From: an uncultured Candidatus Saccharibacteria bacterium
GTDB taxonomy: Bacteria; Patescibacteriota; Minisyncoccia; Phycocordibacterales; EsbW-18
Length of the DNA: 64,000 nucleotides
Direction of reading: 5' to 3'
Assembly: GCA_964520295.1 (NCBI GenBank)
Contig: CAZFMQ010000001.1
Location: 7,048 to 71,047 of the forward strand
The notes below the pieces were generated by a model. The model was not told the DNA's origin. It did no database searches and was given only the letters and a program-made list of their open reading frames with translations. This document shows positions 2,762-59,851 of the stretch, one piece after another. The position numbers and the translations under genes are program-made. Position 1 is the first letter of the stretch. Each line of letters begins with the position of its first letter.

Positions 2762-5656
2762 ATGCGTTTCATCACACCAACGAAAACACGCATAGCACTG
2801 GCAGTTGCAGGCATTGCGTGCATCATTTTGATTGTCGCTGTTGCATCAGGTAATTCATTCTTCGGCATATCCATGCGCAACGATACACTTGCCGACGGTC
2901 TCATCGGACATTGGACCTTTGACGGCAAGTACATGACACCAGGTGTGCAGGATGCTAGTGGCAATGAGTTACACGGTACGCTCTCTGGATTTAGTGCGAC
3001 GACCACTGTCATCGGCAAAATCGGCCAGGCATTGGATTTTGATGGTGTGAATGATTACGTCAATATCGGCGACATTGATCTCACAACCGCCATGAGTGCT
3101 TCTGCATGGTTTTATGTAGATAGCTTTAGTACTGGTGGCTTACTCAATAAAGGCATCGTGTCTCGCCATATTGGTGACGCAGGCAGTAATCGTTCGTGGT
3201 CGTTGTATGTTGATTTACAAACGAGTGGTTCCAACCCACGCCTCGGTGCCGCGCTTTCAAGTAATGGTACAAACCAAGCTTCCAATAATCTTGTTGGTAC
3301 CACCATGCTACAAGAAGGCAGGTGGTATCATGCGGTGCTCACATACGATGCAAATGACAAAACCATTATCTATATAGATGGTGCACAAGAAGCAACAGAT
3401 GCTACACCGCCTGCATCACTCCATTTGAATGATATTCCTGCAAAAATCGGTACACAATATACTGCAACGGATAACCGCTTCTTTTTAGATGGAAAAATAG
3501 ACGACGTGCGTATCTACAACCGCGCGCTCACACCCGAAGAGGTGCAGCGCCTCTATTCTCTCGGTGAAGGTGTCAAAATTGATGCATCACGCGCAACGGG
3601 TGGACTCGGCAACGGCGCGGATTCGGGTCTTGTTGGCCACTGGACCTTTGACGGCAAGTACATGAACCCGAATCCACAAGATTCAAGTGGGTTGGGGAAA
3701 CATGGTGTGCTTACAAACTTCGCTGCCAACCCGGGCATCATTGGCCCTATTGGCCAGGCGCTCGCATTTGATAGCGCCACCGATTACGTACAGATAGATA
3801 ACCCCGATATGCCCACAGGTGATTTCACCATATCGGCGTGGGTGCGCATGACGTCATTTGCGGGTTCACCGACCATTGTGATGATAGGCAACGGATCCAA
3901 TGGTGTGGCAGGTAACGAAATATGGTGGGGGTTTGATACAAGTGGTCGCCTCGGTCACAATTTTGATGGTACAAGTGGTGCAGAGAGTAATACGTTGTTG
4001 TCTCTGAACACATGGGCGCACGCCGTATTACGACGTTCAGGAAGTGCAGTGGAAATGTTTTTGGACGGCATGCTCGTCAGCACATTCACGCGTGCGCAGA
4101 CGCTAAACTTTTCAACGTGCCCGCTTTTTTTAGGGACGGATGCAGACAGTGGTTGTTCGGGCAATTTGGGTAACTATTTCCATGGCCAGATGGACGATGT
4201 GCGTGTGTACGATCGCGCACTTTCCAACGAAGAGGTGATAGTGCTGTACAACATGCGCGGGGGCACCAAAATAGCAACAACACCGCAGGGCGGTGATCTC
4301 TCCAATACAGTTGGTGCTGATCCATATGGCCACTGGACGTTTGATCTCGCGGATTTGGTTTCGGGTGTGCAAGATGTCAGTGGCAATGGACACCACGGTC
4401 AATTGATACTCGGCTCAAATGGCAACACGGCAACGACGACGGCTACAGGTGTGAGAGGGGAGGCGCTAGTGTTTGATGGTAATGATGACCGTGTGCAAAT
4501 TGATTCGCCGAATTTGCCGACGGGTGATTTCACTATATCATTCTGGGCAAAAGCAGATTCATACAGTGGAGGTCCAGCGTTACTCATGATAGGAAACGGT
4601 GCTAATGGTACGGGGGGTAATGAAATATATATTGCATTTCATACAACAGGACAGTTACGGTACCTTGTGGATGGCGGAGATACATTTGAGAGTGCTAAGG
4701 CACTACCTGTCGGCACATGGGGACATATTCTACTACGTCGCACAGGAAGCACTGTTGATTTGCTTCTTGATGGGGTGAAAATACTAACTAGCACGAGCGC
4801 TGGAACGTATAATTATGGGTCATGTCCTCTGCATTTGGGCGTTGATCCGGATTCAGGTTGCTCGGGTTCTTTGACGCAATTCTTGAATGGTCAGCTCGAT
4901 GATTTTCGTGTGTATGACTATGCACTTTCAGATGGTGAAGTGCAGGCGCTGTATCTCGGCGATTCAGGTAATGCTTCTTCAGATTTGATCGCACACTGGA
5001 CATTTGATGGCAAATACATGACCCCGGGCGTGCAGGATGCAAGTGGCAATAATTTGCACGGAACACTTTCAGGATTTTCTGCTACCACTACCGTGATTGG
5101 TCGCATCGGCCAAGCACTTGATTTTGATGGTACGAATAATTATGTATCAGTTCCCGATACTACTGCCCTGGATTTTGGTACAGGGAACATAACCATGAGC
5201 GCGTGGTTTAAGGCACCAAATGAGAATCAGTACAGAACAATAGTTGTGAAGCGAAATCCTTCCTCTCCATTTACCCAAGCTGGTTTGTTCATCTGTACTA
5301 TCAATAGTGGTGGCACCTGTTCTGCAAGTAAAAAACTAACGGGTATTTTTTACGGAGGATCATTAGGTAGCGCTTTGTTCGTGCACACCACAAATGATGT
5401 TGTTGATGGAGAGTGGCACTTAGCGACAGTAGTCCGAACGGGGGCAGCGTCTGCAAAAATATATATTGATGGTGTTGAGGTGGCAACGACAGTGCAACTT
5501 GCGGCAGGTACTCCGAATGTTAATAACAACAACCCACTCATGATAGGGAACGATGGGAGCAGTCACTTTTTCTCAGGTGCAATTGACGATGTGCGCATTT
5601 ACGGGCGTGCACTCACCGCCATCGAAATAGAACGCCTCTACAATATGGGGAGATAA
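2762..5656 (+). CDS. Membrane-anchored protein with four tandem LamG-like (concanavalin-A-like lectin, Laminin_G_3) domains
   Basis: N-terminal TM helix IALAVAGIACIILIVAVA. Four repeats share the pattern HWTFDG…GVQD.SGN..HG.L…IG.IGQAL.FDG.NDYV…DDVR(I/V)Y.RAL…E(V/I)..LY. The gene starts 2 nt after the upstream stop. Confidence 0.65.
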   Translation: MRFITPTKTRIALAVAGIACIILIVAVASGNSFFGISMRNDTLADGLIGHWTFDGKYMTPGVQDASGNELHGTLSGFSATTTVIGKIGQALDFDGVNDYVNIGDIDLTTAMSASAWFYVDSFSTGGLLNKGIVSRHIGDAGSNRSWSLYVDLQTSGSNPRLGAALSSNGTNQASNNLVGTTMLQEGRWYHAVLTYDANDKTIIYIDGAQEATDATPPASLHLNDIPAKIGTQYTATDNRFFLDGKIDDVRIYNRALTPEEVQRLYSLGEGVKIDASRATGGLGNGADSGLVGHWTFDGKYMNPNPQDSSGLGKHGVLTNFAANPGIIGPIGQALAFDSATDYVQIDNPDMPTGDFTISAWVRMTSFAGSPTIVMIGNGSNGVAGNEIWWGFDTSGRLGHNFDGTSGAESNTLLSLNTWAHAVLRRSGSAVEMFLDGMLVSTFTRAQTLNFSTCPLFLGTDADSGCSGNLGNYFHGQMDDVRVYDRALSNEEVIVLYNMRGGTKIATTPQGGDLSNTVGADPYGHWTFDLADLVSGVQDVSGNGHHGQLILGSNGNTATTTATGVRGEALVFDGNDDRVQIDSPNLPTGDFTISFWAKADSYSGGPALLMIGNGANGTGGNEIYIAFHTTGQLRYLVDGGDTFESAKALPVGTWGHILLRRTGSTVDLLLDGVKILTSTSAGTYNYGSCPLHLGVDPDSGCSGSLTQFLNGQLDDFRVYDYALSDGEVQALYLGDSGNASSDLIAHWTFDGKYMTPGVQDASGNNLHGTLSGFSATTTVIGRIGQALDFDGTNNYVSVPDTTALDFGTGNITMSAWFKAPNENQYRTIVVKRNPSSPFTQAGLFICTINSGGTCSASKKLTGIFYGGSLGSALFVHTTNDVVDGEWHLATVVRTGAASAKIYIDGVEVATTVQLAAGTPNVNNNNPLMIGNDGSSHFFSGAIDDVRIYGRALTAIEIERLYNMGR

Positions 5657-5659
5657 TAA

Positions 5660-5880
5660 GTAGGGCACAGGGAACAGTTAACAGCCCCGATACATCGGGG
5701 CAGGGGAACAGGAAGAAAAAAGACGATAGATAACAGAGGACAAGGGCTGACTGAGCAACCGAACCTCTCAGTTTAAGAGAAAAGCAACCCTCCCCCTAAT
5801 TCGCGCGAATTAGGGGGAGGGTTTTCTTTCTGACTTTTTCTTCCCCCGTTCCCTGTTAACTGTTCCCTAGTCCCTACGTT
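5660..5880. repeat. MITE-like structured intergenic element with ~25-bp terminal inverted repeats
   Basis: Left end is GTAGGGCACAGGGAACAGTTAACAG. The reverse complement of the right end is GTAGGGACTAGGGAACAGTTAACAG (2 mismatches). The interior holds two perfect hairpins, CCCCGATACATCGGGG and CCCTCCCCCTAATTCGCGCGAATTAGGGGGAGGG. Confidence 0.4.
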
Positions 5881-38603: not shown

Positions 38604-39182
38604 ATGAATATCAGGCAGGAAACACGCATTTTTGAGCCACCGTTTGTGGCACAAAAGTACGTGCAGAGCATGGAAGATCTTGCGAGTATTCGCAAGGGCT
38701 ACGAGTTGCTGGGCAAGAAGGTTGTTCTCACACAAGGTGTGTGGGACCTCCTGCACCGTGGCCATCTGCGGTACCTGTACGCCGCCGCACAAATGGGCGA
38801 CGTACTCATTGTCGGTGTTGACTCTGATGCTTTGACGCGTAAGCGCAAGGGAGAAGGGCGACCGGCAGTGCCACAGGACGAGCGTATTGAAATGCTGGCA
38901 TTTGAGCATTTCATCAACCACATCGTTCTGCGGGATGTACAGCAGGACATCGGCACGCTCATCAAGACGGTGCGTCCCGATGTCCTGATTGTCTCGGAAA
39001 CGACCAAGGACTTCCCGAAAGAGGATGTTGAGGTCTACACCGAGTGCTGTGGACAGATTGTGCGGCTGGCGGAACAGGCGCGGACGAGTAGCACGGAGCG
39101 TCTGCGTCAGCAGGTAATTCAGGGGAAGCTGGAAGTGGTGAACCTTCTGGAAAATCTCATCAAGAAGGTGAGGGGTTCATGA
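38604..39182 (+). CDS. Cytidylyltransferase-like nucleotidyltransferase (HxGH family; TagD/RfaE-domain-II-like)
   Basis: VVLTQGVWDLLHRGHLRYL…VGVDSD; SD AAAGGAGACACA ahead of the ATG; 4-nt ATGA overlap with the next gene. Confidence 0.55.
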   Translation: MNIRQETRIFEPPFVAQKYVQSMEDLASIRKGYELLGKKVVLTQGVWDLLHRGHLRYLYAAAQMGDVLIVGVDSDALTRKRKGEGRPAVPQDERIEMLAFEHFINHIVLRDVQQDIGTLIKTVRPDVLIVSETTKDFPKEDVEVYTECCGQIVRLAEQARTSSTERLRQQVIQGKLEVVNLLENLIKKVRGS

Positions 39183-40009
39183 CACTTCCCATCGTCGCCT
39201 ACGTTCCCGTAATCCATCAGGGGTATCTGGAACTGTTCGCACAGTATCCGGAGTATCTCTATGTGCTAAACGAGGATGTACTCTCGCTGGTGCCGTATCT
39301 GTCGCGCGATGTGCGTGCGTGTAGACCCGAAAGTATTGTCGCGCAAGCACGCGGACTCGGTTTTTTCCGAGAGGTGCGTGTTGTGGGCAGGCAGTACCTC
39401 AAGTCGCTGAAAAAATCGGGCATGCACGTGGTGATGCCCGATGAAGACATTTCGCGCGAAGTGGCAAAGCGCTTCTCGCTTGAGGCACAGGTGCAGTTTG
39501 CAAGTGTGTTTCTGCGATACGACAGTACCGTGGTTGCAAAAGCATCTGTACCTAATCCGCATCACACGATCACGCAGGAACGCGCGCACGCCGATTTTAT
39601 GAAGCGTGCGCGCGCAGAGACGAAGCGGAGTCCTGACTGGTGGCGGCAAGTCGGTGCGGTTGCAGTGTGCAAGGACAGAACTGTGCTGTCTGCGCACAAC
39701 GAGCACTTTCCGGCACAGCAAACAGCGTACATCATGGGTGATCCGCGTACGCCGTTTGCTCCCGGAGAACGCACCGATATCTCTCTTGCAGGACACGCAG
39801 AACGAATGCTTATTGGTTCTGCGGCTCGACGAGGGATTTCGTTGCATGGTGCTGACCTGTACGTTACTACCTTTCCGTGCCCGGCATGTGCGATTCAAAT
39901 CGCCGCCACCGGATTCTCTCGGGTGTTCTACGAGGAGGGTTACTCGCTTGCGCAAGGAGATGAAATTCTCCGAGAGCACGGAGTAACGCTGACTCGGGTT
40001 GTTCTTTAG
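39179..40009 (+). CDS. Fusion protein: unknown N-terminal domain (~130 aa) plus a C-terminal dCMP/CMP deaminase zinc-binding domain
   Basis: GHAERMLI…LYVTTFPCPACAIQIA (H-A-E…P-C-x-x-C). Confidence 0.65.
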   Translation: MTLPIVAYVPVIHQGYLELFAQYPEYLYVLNEDVLSLVPYLSRDVRACRPESIVAQARGLGFFREVRVVGRQYLKSLKKSGMHVVMPDEDISREVAKRFSLEAQVQFASVFLRYDSTVVAKASVPNPHHTITQERAHADFMKRARAETKRSPDWWRQVGAVAVCKDRTVLSAHNEHFPAQQTAYIMGDPRTPFAPGERTDISLAGHAERMLIGSAARRGISLHGADLYVTTFPCPACAIQIAATGFSRVFYEEGYSLAQGDEILREHGVTLTRVVL

Positions 40010-40065
40010 AAAAAGCCCCCAACCGTGCGAACGGTTGGGGGCGTATTTTTTACAGAGACATACTG

Positions 40066-40536
40066 CTAGTCGTTGCCGATGGCTTTGCCACCGTACGAGC
40101 CAAGCCACAAGCTAATGCGCTTGGCCTGACCAGCGGCATGGTGGGGCGGCACGATGAGGTGCCCATGCAGATGCTGCACGGTGGATCCAGAGTATCCGGA
40201 TTCACCGAAGCGCATCAACAGTCCGCCACCGGGGATGTTGTATTCCGTGCATGCCCAGTGCATCAGCACACCAAATCCCGTCCACTCGTCGTCCACGAGT
40301 TCGGCGGGGGAAATGATGTGTCGCTTGGCGATGCAGAGCAAGTGCAACTGGCTCTGCTGGTATGGCCACTGGTTCTCGGTGAGCACCCAGTGGTCGTTTT
40401 CATACAGCACCGGTCGCGCATGGAACCGCAAAAGATGTTCGGGACAGAATGGACAGACCTTGTCTGCCACAATGTCCTCCATCACCTTGCGTTGTTCGTC
40501 CTCCCGCGCGTGTTCCAGGTTCACGTACTTGGTCAT
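40066..40536 (-). CDS. HIT-superfamily (histidine triad) protein with an N-terminal CxxC…H motif
   Basis: VQHLHGHLIV (HxHxHxx); CPFCPEH; SD GAGGAGGGG. Confidence 0.6.
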   Translation of the reverse strand: MTKYVNLEHAREDEQRKVMEDIVADKVCPFCPEHLLRFHARPVLYENDHWVLTENQWPYQQSQLHLLCIAKRHIISPAELVDDEWTGFGVLMHWACTEYNIPGGGLLMRFGESGYSGSTVQHLHGHLIVPPHHAAGQAKRISLWLGSYGGKAIGND

Positions 40537-40546
40537 GAACCCCTCC

Positions 40547-41485
40547 TCATACTGGTGTCGGGATTGTCATCGCAGGATGCGGATGATACTCCGAGAGTGA
40601 GAAGTGATACGGCGTGAACGCAAACAGATCCGTCACGCTCGTGTCCAACGACATGGTGGGGAATGGGCGCGGTGCGCGGTTGAGCAGTTCCTGTACGAAT
40701 GGAATCTGTTCCTCGTAGATGTGCACGTCAGACAACATGCACACCAACTCACGCATCCGATAACCGACGGTGTGCGCCACCATCATGCCGAAGGCCATGT
40801 ATTGCACGATATTGAACACGAGCCCGACGGGCGCATCAGCACTCCGCTGGTAGTGCACGATATCCAGTTCTTCCGTTTCCGGATAGGCGTGGATGTGGAT
40901 GTCGCCATGGCACGGTGCCACGACAACCTTCCGTTCGTTCGTCGGACCGGGAACCGCATACTGCGGCGCCCAGTTGCTGATGCGTAGGGTGCGCAGGTGC
41001 GGAGCGCGCTTGAGCAACTCCACCACATTGCGCACCTGGTTGACTGATGGTCCTTCGGCGGTGGGGAAATTCGTCCACACCGAGCCGTACGAACCGGGGC
41101 CGAGATCACCTTCGGGAAGTCCGAACACGTCGCACTTCTCCTTGGTAACCCAGCGCTTCCACCACGGGCACCCCCACGCCTTGAGTTCTTCGTGCGTGTG
41201 GGCGCCATGCAGGAAGCCGATGTGTTCGGCGAGCGCACCATGCAACAGGTTGCCGCCGAGATCGCGTTCGGTCATGAGTGGGAATCCGTTTGAGAGCGGA
41301 TACCGCAACACTTCACCGACCAGCTTCAGCGCGGACTTTCCCTGAATGGGATAGACCGTCTGCCCGCTGGACAAAATACTGTCCAACAGGTCGTGGTACT
41401 GCCAATCTGCCTTTCTTTCCATGATATGTCTCCTGTAAAGGTACGGTTCTGGTGGCACTATACGTGTGTGACGTGCGTGCGTCAA
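40547..41485 (-). CDS. Diverged thymidylate synthase (ThyA)-family enzyme
   Basis: EGDLGPGSYGSVW (ThyA has GDLGPVYG.QW); VVAPCHGD (PPCH, catalytic Cys); VHYQRSADAPVGLVFNIVQY (YQRS.D…PFNI.SY); SDVHIY (GD.HIY); RAPRPFPT (REPRP.P); YHPHP. The dUMP-binding DRTGTGT block is replaced by PIQGKSALKL. Confidence 0.75.
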   Translation of the reverse strand: MTHARHTRIVPPEPYLYRRHIMERKADWQYHDLLDSILSSGQTVYPIQGKSALKLVGEVLRYPLSNGFPLMTERDLGGNLLHGALAEHIGFLHGAHTHEELKAWGCPWWKRWVTKEKCDVFGLPEGDLGPGSYGSVWTNFPTAEGPSVNQVRNVVELLKRAPHLRTLRISNWAPQYAVPGPTNERKVVVAPCHGDIHIHAYPETEELDIVHYQRSADAPVGLVFNIVQYMAFGMMVAHTVGYRMRELVCMLSDVHIYEEQIPFVQELLNRAPRPFPTMSLDTSVTDLFAFTPYHFSLSEYHPHPAMTIPTPV

Positions 41486-41523
41486 TCAATGCGCTCTGGG
41501 CATTTTTTGTGTAGGATGGGGAT

Positions 41524-43209
41524 GTGAATACAAGCAAGCAAGTTCTCATAGAGGCGGTACAGGCAGTGTGCGTAGAGCTCGGCTATCCCGAGGTGTCGTT
41601 TGTGATTGAGCGACCTGCCGATATGCAACATGGCGATTGGGCGTGCAACGTGGCACTGCTCCTTGCAAAGCATGTTGGTAAAAAGCCACGAGACATTGCC
41701 GAGACAATTGCAGGGGCATTGCGTGCTCGTTCGCTTCCACACATCGCGTCTATTGAAATCGCGGGCGCAGGTTTCATCAATGTGCGTTGCACACCTGCAT
41801 ATTTCAAAGAAGCACTCGCACGCACGCTCGCCAATACCACAGACATGACGAACCCTGCATTCGCGGGAAAAACAGTGATGGTGGAATACACACAACCAAA
41901 TCCATTCAAACCATTTCACATCGGACACTTGATGAGCAATACCATCGGCGAGACGATTGCGCGTGCGTATGCTGATGCGGGTGCAACAGTTATACGTGCA
42001 AACTATCAAGGTGATGTTGGTTTGCACGTTGCAAAAGCACTGTGGGGCATGATGCAAAAAAATGTAGATCCATCAGATATTGCAGGTATCGGTACGGCGT
42101 ACGCATATGGGCATGAGCAGTATGAGACCAATGAAACTGCGAAAGCAGAAATCATTGCACTGAACAAAAAAGTGTACGCGCGCGACGAAAGCATTATGGA
42201 TACGTACACCGCAGGGCGCACCGAGACGCTACAGGCATTTGAAAAAATTTACGCACTGCTTGGCACCACCTTTGACGAATACTTTTTTGAAAGCGAGGTG
42301 TGGGAGCAGGGTATGACACTCGTGCACGAGGGAGTGGAGAAGGGCATTTTTGAAAAGAGTGATGGCGCCATTGTGTTTCCGGGGGAGAAATATGGATTGC
42401 ACACACGTGTCTTCATTACACGCGAGGGTATTCCAACGTATGAAGCAAAAGAATTAGGGTTGTGTTTGGAAAAAACACAACGTCGCACCTTTGATGTTTC
42501 AGTGACCATCACCGCTGTGGAGCAAGAGCAGTACTTCAATGTGGTGTTCAAAGCATTTGAAGTGTTGCGTCCAGAGTTTGTAGGGAAGTTTCTACACGCG
42601 CACCACGGCATGATGGTGTTGCCATCAGGGAAAATGGGTTCGCGCAAAGGCAATGTCATCACCGGTGAATCACTTATTGATGACATGATTGCGCGTGCAA
42701 AAGAAAAAGTATCGGAGCGCGGCGTGTCTGATGCCGAGCAGATTGCACAGGATGTCGCTGTCGGTGCCATTAAGTACATGGTGCTCAAACAAGGTTTGGG
42801 TAAAAACATCACGTTTGATATTGAGAAGTCACTTTCATTTGAAGGAGACTCAGGACCATATCTGCAGTACACGTACACACGCGCCAATGCGGTATTGGAA
42901 AAAGCGCGTGACAACGGTATTGTACCTGCGCTCAATGAACAAACAGAAACGACTGATGTAGTGCGTCTCTGCGAGCGTTTTGCCGAAGTAGTGCGTGGTG
43001 CGCTTGAAAAACAGTACGCACCGAATGATCTCGTGCACTACCTCATTGCAGTGGCGTCGGCATTCAATAGTTGGTACGCACAAGAAAAAATCGTAGACAC
43101 CGACAATATGGATGTCTCTGCACACCGCACGGCGGTTACACAGGCGGTGGCATCCATCCTCTCGCACGGCCTGTCTCTGCTTGGCATCCCAACACCATCA
43201 AGAATGTAA
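41524..43209 (+). CDS. argS: Arginine--tRNA ligase
   Basis: HIGH-class I (PFHIGHLMSN); DALR anticodon-binding C-terminus. Confidence 0.85.
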   Translation: MNTSKQVLIEAVQAVCVELGYPEVSFVIERPADMQHGDWACNVALLLAKHVGKKPRDIAETIAGALRARSLPHIASIEIAGAGFINVRCTPAYFKEALARTLANTTDMTNPAFAGKTVMVEYTQPNPFKPFHIGHLMSNTIGETIARAYADAGATVIRANYQGDVGLHVAKALWGMMQKNVDPSDIAGIGTAYAYGHEQYETNETAKAEIIALNKKVYARDESIMDTYTAGRTETLQAFEKIYALLGTTFDEYFFESEVWEQGMTLVHEGVEKGIFEKSDGAIVFPGEKYGLHTRVFITREGIPTYEAKELGLCLEKTQRRTFDVSVTITAVEQEQYFNVVFKAFEVLRPEFVGKFLHAHHGMMVLPSGKMGSRKGNVITGESLIDDMIARAKEKVSERGVSDAEQIAQDVAVGAIKYMVLKQGLGKNITFDIEKSLSFEGDSGPYLQYTYTRANAVLEKARDNGIVPALNEQTETTDVVRLCERFAEVVRGALEKQYAPNDLVHYLIAVASAFNSWYAQEKIVDTDNMDVSAHRTAVTQAVASILSHGLSLLGIPTPSRM

Positions 43210-56113: not shown

Positions 56114-56950
56114 CTATTTTTCACTCAACCTGTATCGTACAGCACGTTTTTCAATAAATCCTTCAGTGCGTAGTGCAGAAAGTGCAGCACGCACATCAAC
56201 AGGTGTTCTCTTTGTATGTTTCACTATCTGTTTTTCAGTGGTTGTGTGTTGTGCAAGTAGTTTCAGAATGGCACCGCGCAGTTCGCGCTTTGACCCTTTG
56301 AATGTGGATTGTCTCACGTAATGTTTGCTTCGGACATTTGCATTACCTACAGTTTTTTTCAAGTGCGCACCGTAGTCCATAAGCGCCCAATACCACATAC
56401 GAGGATTACGCATGTATAGCATGTCGGCAATTTTGTTTTCTAGTACCGCATCTGACACGTGCTTCCTCCGTGGAAAAAAATGATGCAGAAATACAGTGCG
56501 TATGTTTGTTTCAATAAGCATCATCGGTTCGTTCCATGCAAATGCACACACGGCTCCTGCGGTATACGGACCAATACCAGGCAGTGCAACAAGCGCACCA
56601 TACGTTCGGGGCAGGGTGCCGCGATGTTCTTGCATTACAATTTGTGCTAAACGATGCAGTGCAAGCGCACGACGGTTATAGCCCAGCCCTTGCCAGAGTG
56701 TAAGGACATCGGCAGTTGTGGCTCGTGCAAGTTTTGCAATCGTGGGAAAGCGTTTTAAAAATTGTGCATACTTCGGCAGAACACGATCAACCTGCGTTTG
56801 TTGCAGCATCATTTCCGATACAAGAATATGGTACGGATTATCGGTGTGTCGCCACGGGAGCGTATGGCGACCGTGCTTCTTGTAAAAATCCAATACAACC
56901 TTTTGGAATTGGCGCGTATCCATACACATAGCGTATCGCACAAATAGCAA
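56114..56950 (-). CDS. mutY: MutY-like HhH-GPD adenine DNA glycosylase, short form lacking Fe-S cysteines and the C-terminal NUDIX-like domain
   Basis: VLDFYKKHGRHTLPWR…PYHILVSEMMLQQTQVDRVLP (MutY has VLDWYDKYGRKTLPWQ…WLSEVMLQQTQV); LPGIGPYTAGA HhH-GPD loop; no Cys cluster. Confidence 0.65.
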   Translation of the reverse strand: MLFVRYAMCMDTRQFQKVVLDFYKKHGRHTLPWRHTDNPYHILVSEMMLQQTQVDRVLPKYAQFLKRFPTIAKLARATTADVLTLWQGLGYNRRALALHRLAQIVMQEHRGTLPRTYGALVALPGIGPYTAGAVCAFAWNEPMMLIETNIRTVFLHHFFPRRKHVSDAVLENKIADMLYMRNPRMWYWALMDYGAHLKKTVGNANVRSKHYVRQSTFKGSKRELRGAILKLLAQHTTTEKQIVKHTKRTPVDVRAALSALRTEGFIEKRAVRYRLSEK

Positions 56951-56986: not shown

Positions 56987-57074
56987 GGAGACGTGTCAGA
57001 GTGGTCGAATGTACCTCCTTGCTAAGGAGGCAGGGCGCAAGCCCTCGTGGGTTCGAATCCCACCGTCTCCGCCA
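56987..57074 (+). tRNA. tRNA-Ser (anticodon GCU), class II long variable arm, encoded CCA
   Basis: Acceptor stem GGAGACG/CGTCTCC. Anticodon stem-loop CCTCC-TTGCTAA-GGAGG. Variable arm CAGGGCGCAAGCCCTCG. T-arm GTGGGTTCGAATCCCAC. Confidence 0.9.
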
Positions 57075-57094
57075 AGACAACTAAGTATCGGAGT

Positions 57095-57109
57095 GACCCG
57101 AATACCTAA
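57095..57109 (+). repeat. 15-bp direct repeat (left copy) GACCCGAATACCTAA flanking the AT-rich mini-island
   Basis: Second copy GACCCGAGTACCTAA at 58228-58242. A third partial copy GACCCGAGTACT lies near 58338. Confidence 0.45.
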
Positions 57110-57137
57110 TCTTTCCTATTTAAGGTAAAATATAATT

Positions 57138-57821
57138 ATGAATCCAAAAAGCTTTTTTAGAGAAGACTTAAATCTAATGAACCGATGGTGGCACCGGTTG
57201 TTTCTTGTGATTTTTATTGTTGCATTTATTTCTATTGTGATAGCTGTTATCTCAAGTACGGTAAACGATAACCAGTTACCAAAATACAGAAAGGTTGGAA
57301 TGCTATCTGATCGAATGACAAGTAAAGTGCAGCTCATAGGAAATCTGGTAAAGCCGAATGAAAAAATTGCTGTTTATGAACATAACCTATATGGCTCGTA
57401 TCTTGGCAAGGATTTTTATGACGGGAATGGAGGCTGGCTATTGAAACAAGAATATTATTGTGCAAAAAATATTTCCGATCATGTTGAAGAAATATCAGAA
57501 ATAACTGGAGTAAAAAACTATAAAGGCAACTCCGAGTTGGTTTCATTGGATGAATTCAAATCTTATCTTGCAAAACAAAATGCTGACTGCATCGAGAACC
57601 TTAAGCTGGATGAAATTAATTTTTTAGGTAACATCCGTAATACTTTGTCTTGGGGTCTTGAAGCTGATGATATGGCTGTTTGGCAAATATCTGTATTGAA
57701 AACTATTGTTGCAGTTTTGTTACCAATATTGTTTATAACACTAGGTTTTATACTACTCCTTGTAATCTATTATAAAGTTTTCTTATTTATTGTTTTTGGT
57801 AAATCTCAAGGAGTCAATTAG
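57138..57821 (+). CDS. Hypothetical membrane protein (N- and C-terminal TM helices), AT-rich
   Basis: Markedly lower G+C than the surrounding window. TMs LFLVIFIVAFISIVIAVI and VAVLLPILFITLGFILLLVIYY. Confidence 0.4.
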   Translation: MNPKSFFREDLNLMNRWWHRLFLVIFIVAFISIVIAVISSTVNDNQLPKYRKVGMLSDRMTSKVQLIGNLVKPNEKIAVYEHNLYGSYLGKDFYDGNGGWLLKQEYYCAKNISDHVEEISEITGVKNYKGNSELVSLDEFKSYLAKQNADCIENLKLDEINFLGNIRNTLSWGLEADDMAVWQISVLKTIVAVLLPILFITLGFILLLVIYYKVFLFIVFGKSQGVN

Positions 57822-57822
57822 T

Positions 57823-58221
57823 ATGTGGTTAGAACTACTCCAAAATATTTTAGGTGCATTTCTGGGAGCGGGTATCATAGCTGCAATATTTGGTTACTGG
57901 TTTGAAGAAAGACGAAGGAAAGAAATCAAGAAAGAGGAAGCTGTAGAGGCTGTCTCAGAACTCCTAGCAGAATGGATCAGGTCAGGTTACATCAGCAATG
58001 TAAGCGAGAATGAGGCTCGTTGGAGATTGCAATCAATGTACTGGAAAACCGTTCTTCGCTTGGATAAAAAAATCCTTGATGTACTAATCCCTCGGTTAGC
58101 AAACAAAGAAGATGCTGTTCCAACCAATGAGGTAATAGTTGAGGTTAGGAAAGCCTTACTCAATCTGAAGAAGCCAGATATCAAGGCAAGCGATTTAAAC
58201 AACTGGCTTCCAAAGAAATAG
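57823..58221 (+). CDS. Hypothetical small membrane-anchored protein, AT-rich
   Basis: MWLELLQNILGAFLGAGIIAAIFGYWF; SD AGGAGT ahead of the ATG, 2 nt after the upstream stop. Confidence 0.4.
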   Translation: MWLELLQNILGAFLGAGIIAAIFGYWFEERRRKEIKKEEAVEAVSELLAEWIRSGYISNVSENEARWRLQSMYWKTVLRLDKKILDVLIPRLANKEDAVPTNEVIVEVRKALLNLKKPDIKASDLNNWLPKK

Positions 58222-58227
58222 CACCCC

Positions 58228-58242
58228 GACCCGAGTACCTAA
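58228..58242 (+). repeat. 15-bp direct repeat (right copy)
   Basis: GACCCGAGTACCTAA, 14 of 15 identical to the 57095 copy. Confidence 0.45.
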
Positions 58243-58397
58243 ATTCGCATACTCAAAATGTGCTAAAATACCCTTACAAGGCTTGAACGTGTGGGTACTT
58301 AACCCACGTAGCCCGCACTAAAAACCTGTTATCGGTAGACCCGAGTACTCAGGTGCACATATTTAAATGCGACAGAATATCGCGTCTTATCGTGAAG

Positions 58398-58775
58398 CTA
58401 CTGCAACGTAACGGTTGCGTTTAGTTTGTGATACGCGCGATACGAAAGTATGAGTACTATCATGCACACTGCAGGCAAAATGAGCATTGAGGACATGCCA
58501 TAGACAATTGCCAAACTTGCAAATGCGAACATGAAGTCAAAACCAAATCCAACGTATGCCCATTCCTTGATGCGTGCCGGAATGGCAGGAATAATCAAAA
58601 TGAGTGCACCAAGCACCTTGCAGATGGTCAGCAACGTGCCGAAGTAATCAGGGTAGCCGAGCGCGCGAATACCTTCGCGCGCCAATTCGGTGTGCGAGGT
58701 GAGTGCGGGCACGACACCTTCAAATAAAAAGATAAAGGTAGTGGTAACCCAAAAAAGTATTTTTGTTTTTTTCAT
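58398..58775 (-). CDS. DoxX-family membrane protein
   Basis: 4 TM; MKKTKILFWVTTTFIFLFEGVVPALT…. Confidence 0.55.
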   Translation of the reverse strand: MKKTKILFWVTTTFIFLFEGVVPALTSHTELAREGIRALGYPDYFGTLLTICKVLGALILIIPAIPARIKEWAYVGFGFDFMFAFASLAIVYGMSSMLILPAVCMIVLILSYRAYHKLNATVTLQ

Positions 58776-59137: not shown

Positions 59138-59851
59138 ATGAAACGATTTCTTATTACGTTGTCTATTCTTGTTGTCGCATTGTTGGGTATTAAGTTTTTG
59201 GCGCCAACCATAGAAACACCTACGCCGGCATCTACTGCGGCAACATTTTCTGACGGCACTACACACGTTGATGCATCGTTTGATAACGAAGCACACACCG
59301 TTACGTTCACACATGAAGCAACGGGCGAGATAACACTGCCACAGGCGGTATCAGCAAGTGGCGCACGATATGCGAACGAAGACGAGAGCATTGTGTTTTG
59401 GGAACATCAAGGTGAGGTAACTATTACAAAAGATGACGAGACCGTCTTTCAAGGTGACGTACAAGAAGATGTAGAGACGCCAGAAGAGCCGTCAGCAACT
59501 GTAGCAACACCTGCAGAGTTGGTTGGTACATGGGAGTGGCAGAAAACAGAGATGAATGATGATTCAGAGGTGGTGCCTACGGAGGCGGGAGCGTTTACCT
59601 TGACGTTTGCGCAAGATGGACGAGTGTCGGGTACCACGGATTGTAACAATTATATGGGAAGCGTAACGGTAGATGGCTCATCTTTGAGCTTCGGTCAGCT
59701 AGCAAGCACGATGATGTATTGCGAGGGTTCACAGGAAAGTGTCTTTACGCGTGCACTTATGGATGTGGCAACGTACGTTTTTGATGCAGAAGGCAACCTG
59801 GTGCTCAATATAAAATTTGATTCGGGTAATATGCATTTCGTGAAGCAGTAG
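59138..59851 (+). CDS. Secreted MliC-like plus META (HslJ-like) two-domain protein
   Basis: Signal peptide. MliC-like TFSDGTTHVDASFDNEAHTVTFT…ARYANEDESIVFWEHQGEVTI. META LVGTWEW…FTLTFAQDGRVSGTTDCNNYMGSVTVDG.SLSFGQLASTMMYC. Confidence 0.55.
   Translation: MKRFLITLSILVVALLGIKFLAPTIETPTPASTAATFSDGTTHVDASFDNEAHTVTFTHEATGEITLPQAVSASGARYANEDESIVFWEHQGEVTITKDDETVFQGDVQEDVETPEEPSATVATPAELVGTWEWQKTEMNDDSEVVPTEAGAFTLTFAQDGRVSGTTDCNNYMGSVTVDGSSLSFGQLASTMMYCEGSQESVFTRALMDVATYVFDAEGNLVLNIKFDSGNMHFVKQ

Follow-up and report, generated by a model that had tools for sequence, protein, structure and literature searches.

Integrated elements that keep both attachment sites, attL and attR, and have lost their integration genes are known as cis-mobilizable elements (CIMEs); in the ICESt1/ICESt3 family of Streptococcus thermophilus they are found in tandem accretions at attachment (att) sites (PMC5704250). 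The tycheposons of Prochlorococcus integrate at tRNA genes, including that for tRNA-Ser(UGA), and are flanked by partial tRNAs; in their islands later arrivals push older ones outward, remnants and partial tRNAs lie scattered, and a large serine recombinase (LSR) is present in just a minority, 27 of 937 elements (bioRxiv 10.1101/2020.12.28.424599). We describe here a small unit that lies directly behind the tRNA-Ser(GCU) gene in a 64,000-nt stretch of DNA from an uncultured Candidatus Saccharibacteria bacterium (assembly GCA_964520295.1, contig CAZFMQ010000001.1). This whole stretch is referred to as the window and coordinates are window positions unless another contig is named; L-numbers denote the contigs or loci with which the window was compared (L008–L010 are Logan contigs, and L146 and L249 are IMG/VR viral contigs). 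In our view the unit, at about 57073–58316 (1,244 bp), is probably an integrase-less, CIME-like derivative of LSR-encoding integrative elements or temperate phages of Patescibacteria, and we take it for a mobile-DNA relic of a kind that recurs and is fairly ordinary. Patescibacteria, or the candidate phyla radiation (CPR), have very small genomes, and their mobile DNA is little known. Literature searches on these bacteria for serine recombinases together with prophages and tRNAs, or for integrons together with attC, returned nothing describing such a system, which is weak evidence of novelty.

The tRNA-Ser(GCU) gene (56987–57074, + strand; discriminator G at 57071, CCA at 57072–57074) is intact, as called by ARAGORN and by Rfam (RF00005, 53.7 bits). 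It is the single tRNA that ARAGORN finds in the window and represents the single Rfam family that reaches its gathering score across the 64 kb. It appears to have been the integration target, or B arm, and the unit begins at or just after its CCA. An earlier note on this DNA had described an AT-rich segment of about 1.1 kb right after the tRNA gene, with two genes for small transmembrane proteins, and had read it as site-specific integration beside a tRNA. Both parts of the description are borne out, and the reading is supported by the composition, by the repeats and by an element family that is tied to tRNA-Ser genes. Positions 57110–58227 have a G+C content of 0.358, compared with 0.483 ± 0.029 (minimum 0.424) for 1,208 other segments of the same size (z = −4.35). 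The G+C content at third codon positions (GC3) is 0.294 in the first open reading frame (ORF1, 227 aa) and 0.333 in the second (ORF2, 132 aa), values that fall below those of all 45 other ORFs of at least 150 aa (0.471 ± 0.084, minimum 0.354). The segment is an outlier in composition.

The right-hand end of the unit is formed by a conserved tRNA-Ser-like element of about 93 nt (58226–58316, + strand; nhmmer E = 3e-22), which ends in ...GTGGGTACTTAACCCACGTAGCCCGC and which we read as the P arm of an att site. The earlier note had passed over the stretch between the second and third repeats as mere spacer, but it is in fact this element, of which 47 distinct copies with enough flank to analyse were found in Patescibacteria metagenome and IMG/VR contigs. 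The final 26 nt of the element mimic the T-arm and acceptor end of tRNA-Ser(GCU). The T-arm and 3' acceptor strand of the tRNA gene (57047–57072, + strand, GTGGGTTCGAATCCCACCGTCTCCGC) agree with 58291–58316 at 19 of 26 positions, a score reached in none of 500 shuffles, and we infer that this imperfect pair, with the tRNA copy on the left, is the true flanking repeat of the unit. Copies were sought by scanning metagenome contigs for the most conserved 17-mer, GTGGGTACTTAACCCAC, which gave 48 loci, about 35 of them matching far past the seed; an nhmmer profile then built from the copies added further diverged copies in the same loci and two in the viral contigs L146 and L249. The window element is 88–94% identical over about 94 nt to the copies in L127, L133 and L123, with that in L127 at 94%. 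The consensus reads (C)CCGACCCAC.TACCT.A ... GCTAAAATACCCTTA ... GTGGGTACTTAACCCAC....CCCGC(CA), and most copies terminate in CCGC or CCGCCA. When viral contigs were scanned for motifs, AGTATCGGAGTGACCC matched unrelated coding sequence only and the matches to GCTAAAATACCCTTA were mostly due to chance.

The tie to tRNA-Ser genes is seen in L102, L111, L118, L123, L128 and L140, where a copy lies 0.7–5.6 kb downstream of a tRNA-Ser gene on the same strand (anticodons GCU, UGA and GGA). Copies also form arrays, with three in L136 and two each in L105, L123, L131, L133, L097 and L098. Between the copies of an array lie cassettes of 0.4–1.1 kb, mostly on the same strand, whose cargo includes HNH homing endonucleases (L102 and L123), a methyltransferase and GrpB (L133), and small membrane proteins. 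The HNH homing endonuclease genes, which have HNH_repeat and HNH domains (L102 2966–3880; L123 714–1364, − strand), fill the first cassette slot after tRNA-Ser(GGA) and tRNA-Ser(GCU) and the trailer and repeat described below; cleavage of the conserved trailer by a homing endonuclease might offer a separate way of inserting DNA at this site. Degenerate scars are found in L140 (4620–4860) and in L066 and L072, and the second copies in L123, L133 and L097 are degenerate partial units.

Two tandem TTGGCATTT motifs, 11 nt apart, precede 16 of the 47 copies; examples, in phage- or LSR-type copies, are L110 (oriented) 10–36, L128 5653–5676 and L146 (oriented) 1660–1684. Together with ...TACCTCAAATG on the other side the tandem motifs form a pseudo-palindrome centred on GACCCAC, which may be an accessory binding site or an operator. 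In L106, L113, L114, L116 and L120 copies of this type follow a recurring module with ORFs of about 430 and 250 aa, which, from the appearance of their sequences and without a domain search, we take to be ParB-methyltransferase and methyltransferase genes. A tRNA-Ser-like gene with the unusual anticodon ACU lies about 185 nt downstream of the copy in L104 on the same strand (4254–4341, − strand) and may be element-borne or degenerate. In L146 (oriented, 1836–1878) the trailer is directly followed by a perfect 17-bp hairpin, GTTCGAATCCCTTAGTG/CACTAAGGGATTCGAAC, with a T-loop-like GTTCGAATCCC inside.

The family is linked to LSRs as well as to tRNA-Ser. Genes for proteins with Resolvase, Recombinase and Zn_ribbon_recom domains adjoin copies in L100, L110, L111, L114 and L128, and such genes also lie beside the element in both of the viral contigs that hold it, L146 and L249; the L128 and L146 recombinases are 72% identical. 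The LSRs of L114 (2–1339, + strand) and L100 (135–1667, + strand) belong to one subfamily, in which the LSR ORF, on the strand opposite to that of the element, extends into it and ends ...WRATWVKYP..., with its last 10–13 codons or so on the P arm. A relic of about 13 such codons is preserved in the window at 58277–58315 (− strand), where tblastn with the C-termini of these two LSRs finds RATWVKYPHVQAL followed by a stop codon; ten of its 13 residues are identical to the L114 C-terminus, and nine of ten to that of L100. Integration at ...CCGC would replace the C-terminal tail of this subfamily by tRNA-encoded residues, and such a swap could constitute an integration-dependent switch. Apart from the relic, no recombinase of either kind turned up in the unit or in the 64-kb window when four LSRs and one tyrosine recombinase were used as tblastn queries, and no protein with the Resolvase, Recombinase and Zn-ribbon combination is present in either. 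This supports the earlier note, which had seen no integrase inside the segment and had taken it for a probable remnant or satellite-type element.

The likely position of the crossover is best seen in L128, which contains a complete element. Here tRNA-Ser(UGA) (569–656) is followed by trailer, hairpin, repeat and terminator, a full-length LSR gene (688–2085, − strand), cargo consisting of a META-domain gene and a ResIII/DEAD helicase gene, two TTGGCATTT motifs, the repeat and the tRNA-like element (5679–5770), after which a different trailer, CAACACGAGTTAGCTCGAC..., begins. The arm beside the tRNA (attL) agrees in 83 of 108 positions with the DNA behind the L110 element, which leads into another LSR of the L128 subfamily, and the trailer after the L128 element is identical at 48 of 62 positions to that of the L072 tRNA-Ser gene. 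These matches imply that the element brings the TATCGG trailer and its repeat with it, as its P' arm, and that crossover probably takes place at the 3' end of the tRNA, at ...CCGC/CA. The locus pairs L106/L114, L110/L126 and L131/L140 point to the same position, each pair having the element in common and diverging immediately after ...CCGC.

About 10 nt past every tRNA-Ser gene retrieved with elements, and likewise past that of L070, which was found independently through its MutY synteny, is the imperfect inverted repeat AGTATCGG-N5-6-(G)ACCCGAGTACC. Trailer and repeat follow tRNA-Ser genes of three isoacceptors and also 22 of the 47 element copies, and they adjoin the LSR gene in L128 and L110. 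The order of repeat and element, then trailer and repeat, is intact in L110, L135, L136 and L146.

In the window the trailer CAAGACAACTAAGTATCGGAGT and the first 15-bp repeat (R1, GACCCGAATACCTAA, 57095–57109, + strand) together occupy 57073–57109 (+ strand) and would represent the element-borne P' arm; they hold the imperfect inverted repeat AGTATCGG/CCGAATAC with a spacer of 6 nt. The second repeat (R2, GACCCGAGTACCTAA, 58228–58242, + strand) forms the 5' end of the 93-nt element. Family alignments place CACCCC directly before it (58222–58242 with R2, + strand), and these are the final bases of the P-arm variant ...GAGACCCC that is found in L146, L128 and L105. The third (R3, GACCCGAGTAC(T), equivalent to GACCCGAGTACT, 58338–58349, + strand) lies in the flank as part of a second trailer-and-repeat segment, ACTAAAAACCTGTTATCGGTA-GACCCGAGTAC-TCAGG (58317–58354, + strand), a region that includes the palindrome ACCCGAGTACT/AGTACTCAGGT. 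This segment agrees in 28 of 40 positions with what comes behind the element of the viral contig L146 (0 of 500 shuffles) and may be either the native trailer of the host (host B') or a P' remnant of an older element. The motif GACCCGARTAC has three perfect matches in the 64 kb, at 57095, 58228 and 58338; with one mismatch allowed there are five matches compared with 1.13 ± 0.99 expected, and none of 100 shuffles reaches five. R1 and R2 share CCTAA, and R2 and R3 share a G at position 8.

The repeats at 57095 and 58228 are therefore present where the earlier note had placed them, and so is its third, partial copy near 58338, although the latter lies in flanking host DNA or an older remnant. 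Their role as the boundaries of the island is another matter. Recombination more likely joined the DNA at the 3' ends of the tRNA (after about 57072) and of the 93-nt element (after about 58316), and R1 and R2 are probably no junctions but lie within the arms of a split attP, one in each. Our own first parse, with R1 as attL, R3 as attR and crossover inside the repeat, was downgraded after L128 and L110 and is kept as a rival or secondary process.

The arrangement can be accounted for as follows. Members of the parent family would insert at the very 3' end of tRNA-Ser genes by means of their own LSR. Their attP would consist of two TTGGCATTT motifs, the repeat and the 93-nt tRNA-like element on one side of the crossover and the trailer (AGTATCGG...), the repeat and, further on, the LSR gene on the other. 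Recombination at ...CCGC/CA would leave the tRNA intact, with the trailer, repeat and left-hand cargo beside it as attL and with the repeat and tRNA-like element at the far end as attR. The window unit would have kept both att arms, lost the recombinase and the rest of the element, and been left with a two-gene membrane-protein operon, giving the order P' arm (57073–57109), leader, ORF1, ORF2, CACCCC, and R2 with the 93-nt element. R1 and R2 would then be the halves of a split attP, and a circular form would read R-element/trailer-R. An LSR was presumably the enzyme responsible, and the unit appears to have arisen by deletion. The model predicts an empty site of ...CCACCGTCTCCGC/ACTAAAAACCTGTTATCGG and a circle junction of ...CCCACGTAGCCCGC/CAAGACAACTAAGTATCGG; crossover in a repeat core would instead give GGAGTGACCCGARTAC/TCAGGTGCAC and CACCCCGACCCGAGTAC/CTAATCTTTCC.

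The same operon is found in L008, L009 and L010, where it is 83.5% identical over 1,117 nt (window 57117–58233). L009 runs from a tRNA-like 3' end with AAGTATCGGACGTGACCCGAATGC through a DUF4440 gene, an element of about 95 nt that resembles window 58228–58320, ORF1–ORF2, a diverged element and a gene for a 136-aa protein with a weak, sub-threshold HATPase_c-like match to opposite-strand ABC transporter genes. The operon is thus the second cassette of a three-cassette array, in a genomic context that differs from that of the window. The right-hand joint, ...TAGCACCC(C)GACCCG (also given as ...AAATAGCACCC(C)GACCCG), is common to the window and L009 operons. An ORF1 homologue with 54% identity follows tRNA-Ser(GCU), trailer and repeat in the 251-kb contig L300. 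The common operon and joint at different array positions and in different genomes, the purifying selection on both genes described below and the L300 homologue are as expected if the unit moved after its formation, and they suggest that it is more than a scar. Continued mobility in trans, through a related LSR, is speculative. The unit has no recombinase or transfer genes and only two genes for small membrane proteins; its left arm matches the trailer and repeat of the L128 and L110 LSR elements, and its right arm resembles other copies to the degree given above. With attL and attR retained and the integration genes lost, it falls within the definition of a CIME (PMC5704250).

ORF1 (57138–57821, + strand) and ORF2 (57823–58221, + strand) are separated by 1 nt, with GGAG 8 nt upstream of the ORF2 start, and ORF2 is probably translationally coupled to ORF1. 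The ORF1 gene has a conserved leader, TATTTAAGGTAAAATATAATT (57113–57137, + strand), which it has in common with L009/L010 and L300, where it also lies upstream of ORF1 homologues. The ORF1 protein consists of an N-terminal FFRxDLNLxxRWWHRLF, a predicted transmembrane helix (residues 17–43), a mixed alpha/beta domain of about 140 aa and a second predicted transmembrane helix (residues 186–220). In the family alignment the domain between the helices carries two invariant cysteines, Cys108 and Cys151, and the predicted topology would place it outside the cell. The family has at least 69 sequence clusters, whose named members are exclusively Patescibacteria (Paceibacterota, Gribaldobacteria, Uhrbacteria and Magasanikbacteria). 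The AlphaFold2 model of ORF1 is confident (pLDDT 88.6, pTM 0.75) and has no match among PDB or BFVD structures (best E > 2); searches with the protein gave no match among PDB sequences or in Pfam, PHROGs or PADLOC. ORF2 has an N-terminal transmembrane helix and a conserved helical domain. Searches that included Pfam, PADLOC and PHROGs gave it no family assignment, and its AlphaFold2 model is unreliable (pLDDT 48.5). Its family is small, with seven close homologues and 79 cluster representatives found by profile, and the homologue in L011 sits within a type I restriction-modification island. A defence-like identity, which the earlier note had raised for the two ORFs, is not reflected in PADLOC, where neither matched any family; the best PHROG E-values were 0.02–0.03, for single proteins, with no family recurring across family members.

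Both genes are intact and under purifying selection, with ratios of nonsynonymous to synonymous divergence (dN/dS) relative to L009 of 0.10 for ORF1 and 0.22 for ORF2. We note that dS itself, between window 57138–58221 and L009 638–1721, is 1.08 for ORF1 and 0.35 for ORF2; this threefold difference between the two genes suggests a mosaic history of the cassette. ORF1 homologues have 30–39% G+C in hosts of 44–52%. In L001 (5900–7000) and L302 (7001–7528) they form low-G+C islets of about 1.1 kb (0.30–0.38 compared with about 0.53) which adjoin a divergently transcribed gene of host-like composition for a 274-aa tyrosine recombinase; neither a tRNA nor a 93-nt element is present at these islets, nor is any flanking repeat obvious, and they are a second way in which genes of the ORF1 family are inserted. 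The tyrosine recombinase was considered as the integrase of the element and rejected, its host-like composition being unlike that of the islet; the gene is probably a housekeeping one of the Xer type. In L005–L007 the ORF1 homologue has a terminase gene as its neighbour, and the surrounding prophage-like region contains a diversity-generating retroelement (DGR). RVT_1 and bAvd domains are hallmarks of a DGR, and genes with these domains lie close to the homologue in L005 (570–1972). ORFs near the element in L099 and L104 resemble a DGR reverse transcriptase and Avd, judging by sequence appearance alone. Going by genomic context only, one might speculate, and we regard it as doubtful, that the two genes form an accessory ('moron') module of phage origin whose products act at the cell envelope, superinfection exclusion being one example.

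Several points weigh against the interpretation of the unit as a CIME-like derivative of LSR elements. Homology gives no support for any function of the cargo. The recombinase search covered 64 kb of the genome, and an LSR elsewhere is neither shown nor excluded by it. Integration at tRNA-Ser is deduced from sequence rather than observed, and the crossover point was derived by comparing unrelated loci. The homology between the window and L009 cassettes sets in 8 nt downstream of R1 and breaks off within R2, at 58233, so that it is bounded by the 15-bp repeats and not by ...CCGC, and the two cassette copies are joined to different element subfamilies. It follows that some exchange must also have taken place at the repeats, which could reflect either another site-specific process or recombination in the short conserved sequences where modules meet. 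The TATCGG-type trailer after the window element, with its resemblance to a phage P' arm (28 of 40 positions), gives a P/P'-like junction, which canonical LSR chemistry between attP and attB does not directly produce. Finally, tRNA targeting is typical of tyrosine recombinases rather than of LSRs.

Some of these points are accommodated by a cassette system that acts at the 15–17-bp repeats (GACCCRNRTACCTAA) through a dedicated recombinase, as at integron attC/attI or pdif sites, with the tRNA-like element as a separate module. The limits of the window–L009 homology and the different element subfamilies joined to the same cassette both speak for it, as do arrays with the order repeat, cassette, repeat, element with trailer, repeat, cassette in L123, L133, L136, L105 and L097. 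The CCTAA of R1 and R2 and the position-8 G of R2 and R3 fit a crossover inside the repeat, trailer and repeat form an imperfect palindrome like a core site (AGTATCGG-N6-CCGAGTAC), and the cassettes are small and diverse (HNH endonuclease, methyltransferase, GrpB, DUF4440 and the weak HATPase_c-like match). We keep this as the chief rival or as a secondary mechanism, but think it improbable: no recombinase candidate but LSRs recurs beside these arrays, the repeat with which an element begins at its 5' end has no left palindrome arm and is hence a half-site, L128 and the three divergent locus pairs put the junction at ...CCGC, and exchange between related phages at short conserved boundaries could yield the same pattern with no dedicated enzyme. 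A further possibility is an immobile scar: one prophage would have integrated here a single time and lost nearly all of its DNA to deletion, and what is left would not have moved since and would have no residual att function. The absence of a recombinase in the window, the LSR C-terminal relic inside the element and the frequency of degenerate partial units (L140 4620–4860, L066, L072 and the second copies in L123, L133 and L097) are all as expected of a scar. We consider it unlikely, although an explanation to be kept in mind, given that the same operon and right-hand junction occur in another genome at another array position among other neighbours, that both att arms are well preserved (as in the agreement with L127) and that both genes are intact and selected.

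The two remaining alternatives fare considerably worse. A tRNA-like ...CCCGC(CA) end, a T-arm-like hairpin and terminator-like hairpins after the copies in L127, L098, L113, L116, L118 and L126 might mark the 93-nt element as the gene for a functional tRNA-like small RNA, or as a decaying tRNA-Ser duplicate, and not as a recombination site. Rfam has no match to the element even at E values of up to 10, and ARAGORN makes no call. RNAalifold applied to 39 copies returns only the hairpin of the seed, with a covariation term of 0.07; diverged copies break this hairpin rather than compensate, its loop, TACTTAA, lacks the T-loop consensus and the partner of the acceptor stem is absent. The element also sits in phage-like contigs and overlaps LSR coding sequence. 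The noncoding RNA hypothesis was rejected on the absent Rfam match and covariation, and we regard the element as a DNA site rather than an RNA, an RNA or tRNA-duplicate origin being very improbable. Native genes with chance repeats and no horizontal transfer would be compatible with ORF1 homologues that are widespread in Patescibacteria, one of them, in L300, also behind tRNA-Ser(GCU). This explanation is effectively refuted by the outlying composition, by repeat statistics far from chance, by the occurrence of ORF1 homologues as low-G+C islets of about 1 kb at unrelated sites in hosts of 0.51–0.52 G+C (L001 and L302) and by the other genes that relatives with MutY–tRNA-Ser synteny have at this place.

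The CIME-like derivation that we favour leaves room for a broader proposal, which we put forward tentatively and think less probable than not by some way: that Patescibacteria have a cassette-capture system in which the LSRs of resident or infecting phages insert, excise and shuffle integrase-less cassettes in trans. Cassettes of 0.4–1.2 kb would each carry an att module of about 125 nt, in the order repeat, tRNA-like element, trailer and repeat, that mimics the 3' end of tRNA-Ser with its trailer, and behind the tRNA-Ser genes of every isoacceptor they would build up into tandem arrays. The ORF1 family would be one of the commonest cargos, recurring as low-G+C islets of about 1 kb. If true, this would be an analogue of integrons built on a serine recombinase and a tRNA-mimicking site, and a source of gene flux for tiny genomes. 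More generally, the locus and the roughly 47 copies point to a recurrent hot spot behind tRNA-Ser genes, where phage-like elements with LSRs deposit small cargo modules. If this is confirmed, the 93-nt element and the AGTATCGG...GACCCGAGTACC trailer would provide a sequence handle for CPR prophages, their remnants and flexible genes in metagenomes, the natural pairs of tRNA-targeting serine recombinases and att sites would be possible tools for genome engineering, and two conserved membrane-protein families would be flagged as frequent mobile cargo.

The unit is flanked on the left by an HhH-GPD (MutY/Nth-like) glycosylase gene (56114–56950, − strand; Pfam) and on the right by a gene for a DoxX_2 family membrane protein (58398–58775, − strand; Pfam E = 2.5e-13), both of host-like composition. 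The MutY–tRNA-Ser synteny is retained in L066 and L072, and in relatives with this synteny other genes occupy the position of the island. In a scan of one genome per species the MutY-like protein has just 54–58% identity to the closest genomes, and L066 and L072 are too distant from the window for comparison at the level of bases. A gene for a META/MliC-domain protein lies 0.8 kb downstream of the island (59138–59851), and the cargo of the complete L128 element likewise includes a META-domain gene (2170–2718, − strand); the region on the right-hand side of the island may thus have been acquired too, at an older date. The only markedly G+C-rich stretch of the window, 39001–42000 (0.55–0.57 compared with 0.48), contains no rRNA or other Rfam family.

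Comparison with described systems indicates several partial likenesses. Integron arrays, including clusters of attC sites lacking integron integrases (CALINs), and pdif modules likewise consist of small, mostly same-strand cassettes in tandem with no recombinase among them, with a conserved site of about 100 nt between cassettes and short core boundaries. The arrays described here differ in being anchored at a tRNA and in having no IntI, no attC palindrome with R''/R' cores and no alternating XerC/XerD sites. As single-stranded DNA the element forms only a hairpin of 5–7 bp (z = −1.6 to −1.8) and it has no GTTRRRY cores; no IntI is encoded in the 64-kb window, and it is LSRs that neighbour arrays elsewhere. 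An integron-like attC was ruled out by the folding and the missing cores. LSR prophages of the phiC31/Bxb1 type have in common with the parent elements the combination of Resolvase, Recombinase and Zn-ribbon domains, a recombinase gene beside the att site, and attP and attB half-sites that are similar over about 25 bp. Known LSR phages mostly target protein-coding genes, unlike the tRNA-Ser 3' end that would be targeted here. The crossing of an attP arm by the recombinase ORF in one subfamily is a further difference, as are the arrays of P/P'-like junctions, which canonical chemistry between attP and attB does not lead one to expect.

Tycheposons resemble the present elements in their architecture: both are tRNA-anchored cargo elements with partial tRNA copies, serial integration, remnants and, in some cases, LSRs. 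They belong to another phylum, the cassettes here are much smaller and no replication module is seen in them, and the 'partial tRNA' here is a 93-nt mimic that is conserved, belongs to the element and has a non-canonical loop, whereas theirs is a copy of the host tRNA. The unit is here read as CIME-like, although CIME relatives are integrative and conjugative elements (ICEs) with tyrosine integrases and the parents here would be phage-like LSR elements of Patescibacteria; the window unit is also merely 1.24 kb long, and its mobilization in trans is putative. As in CIMEs, integration genes have been lost and attL and attR kept, the site is the 3' end of a conserved target gene, related elements occur in tandem arrays, and movement, by analogy, would be expected only with a recombinase from a related element.

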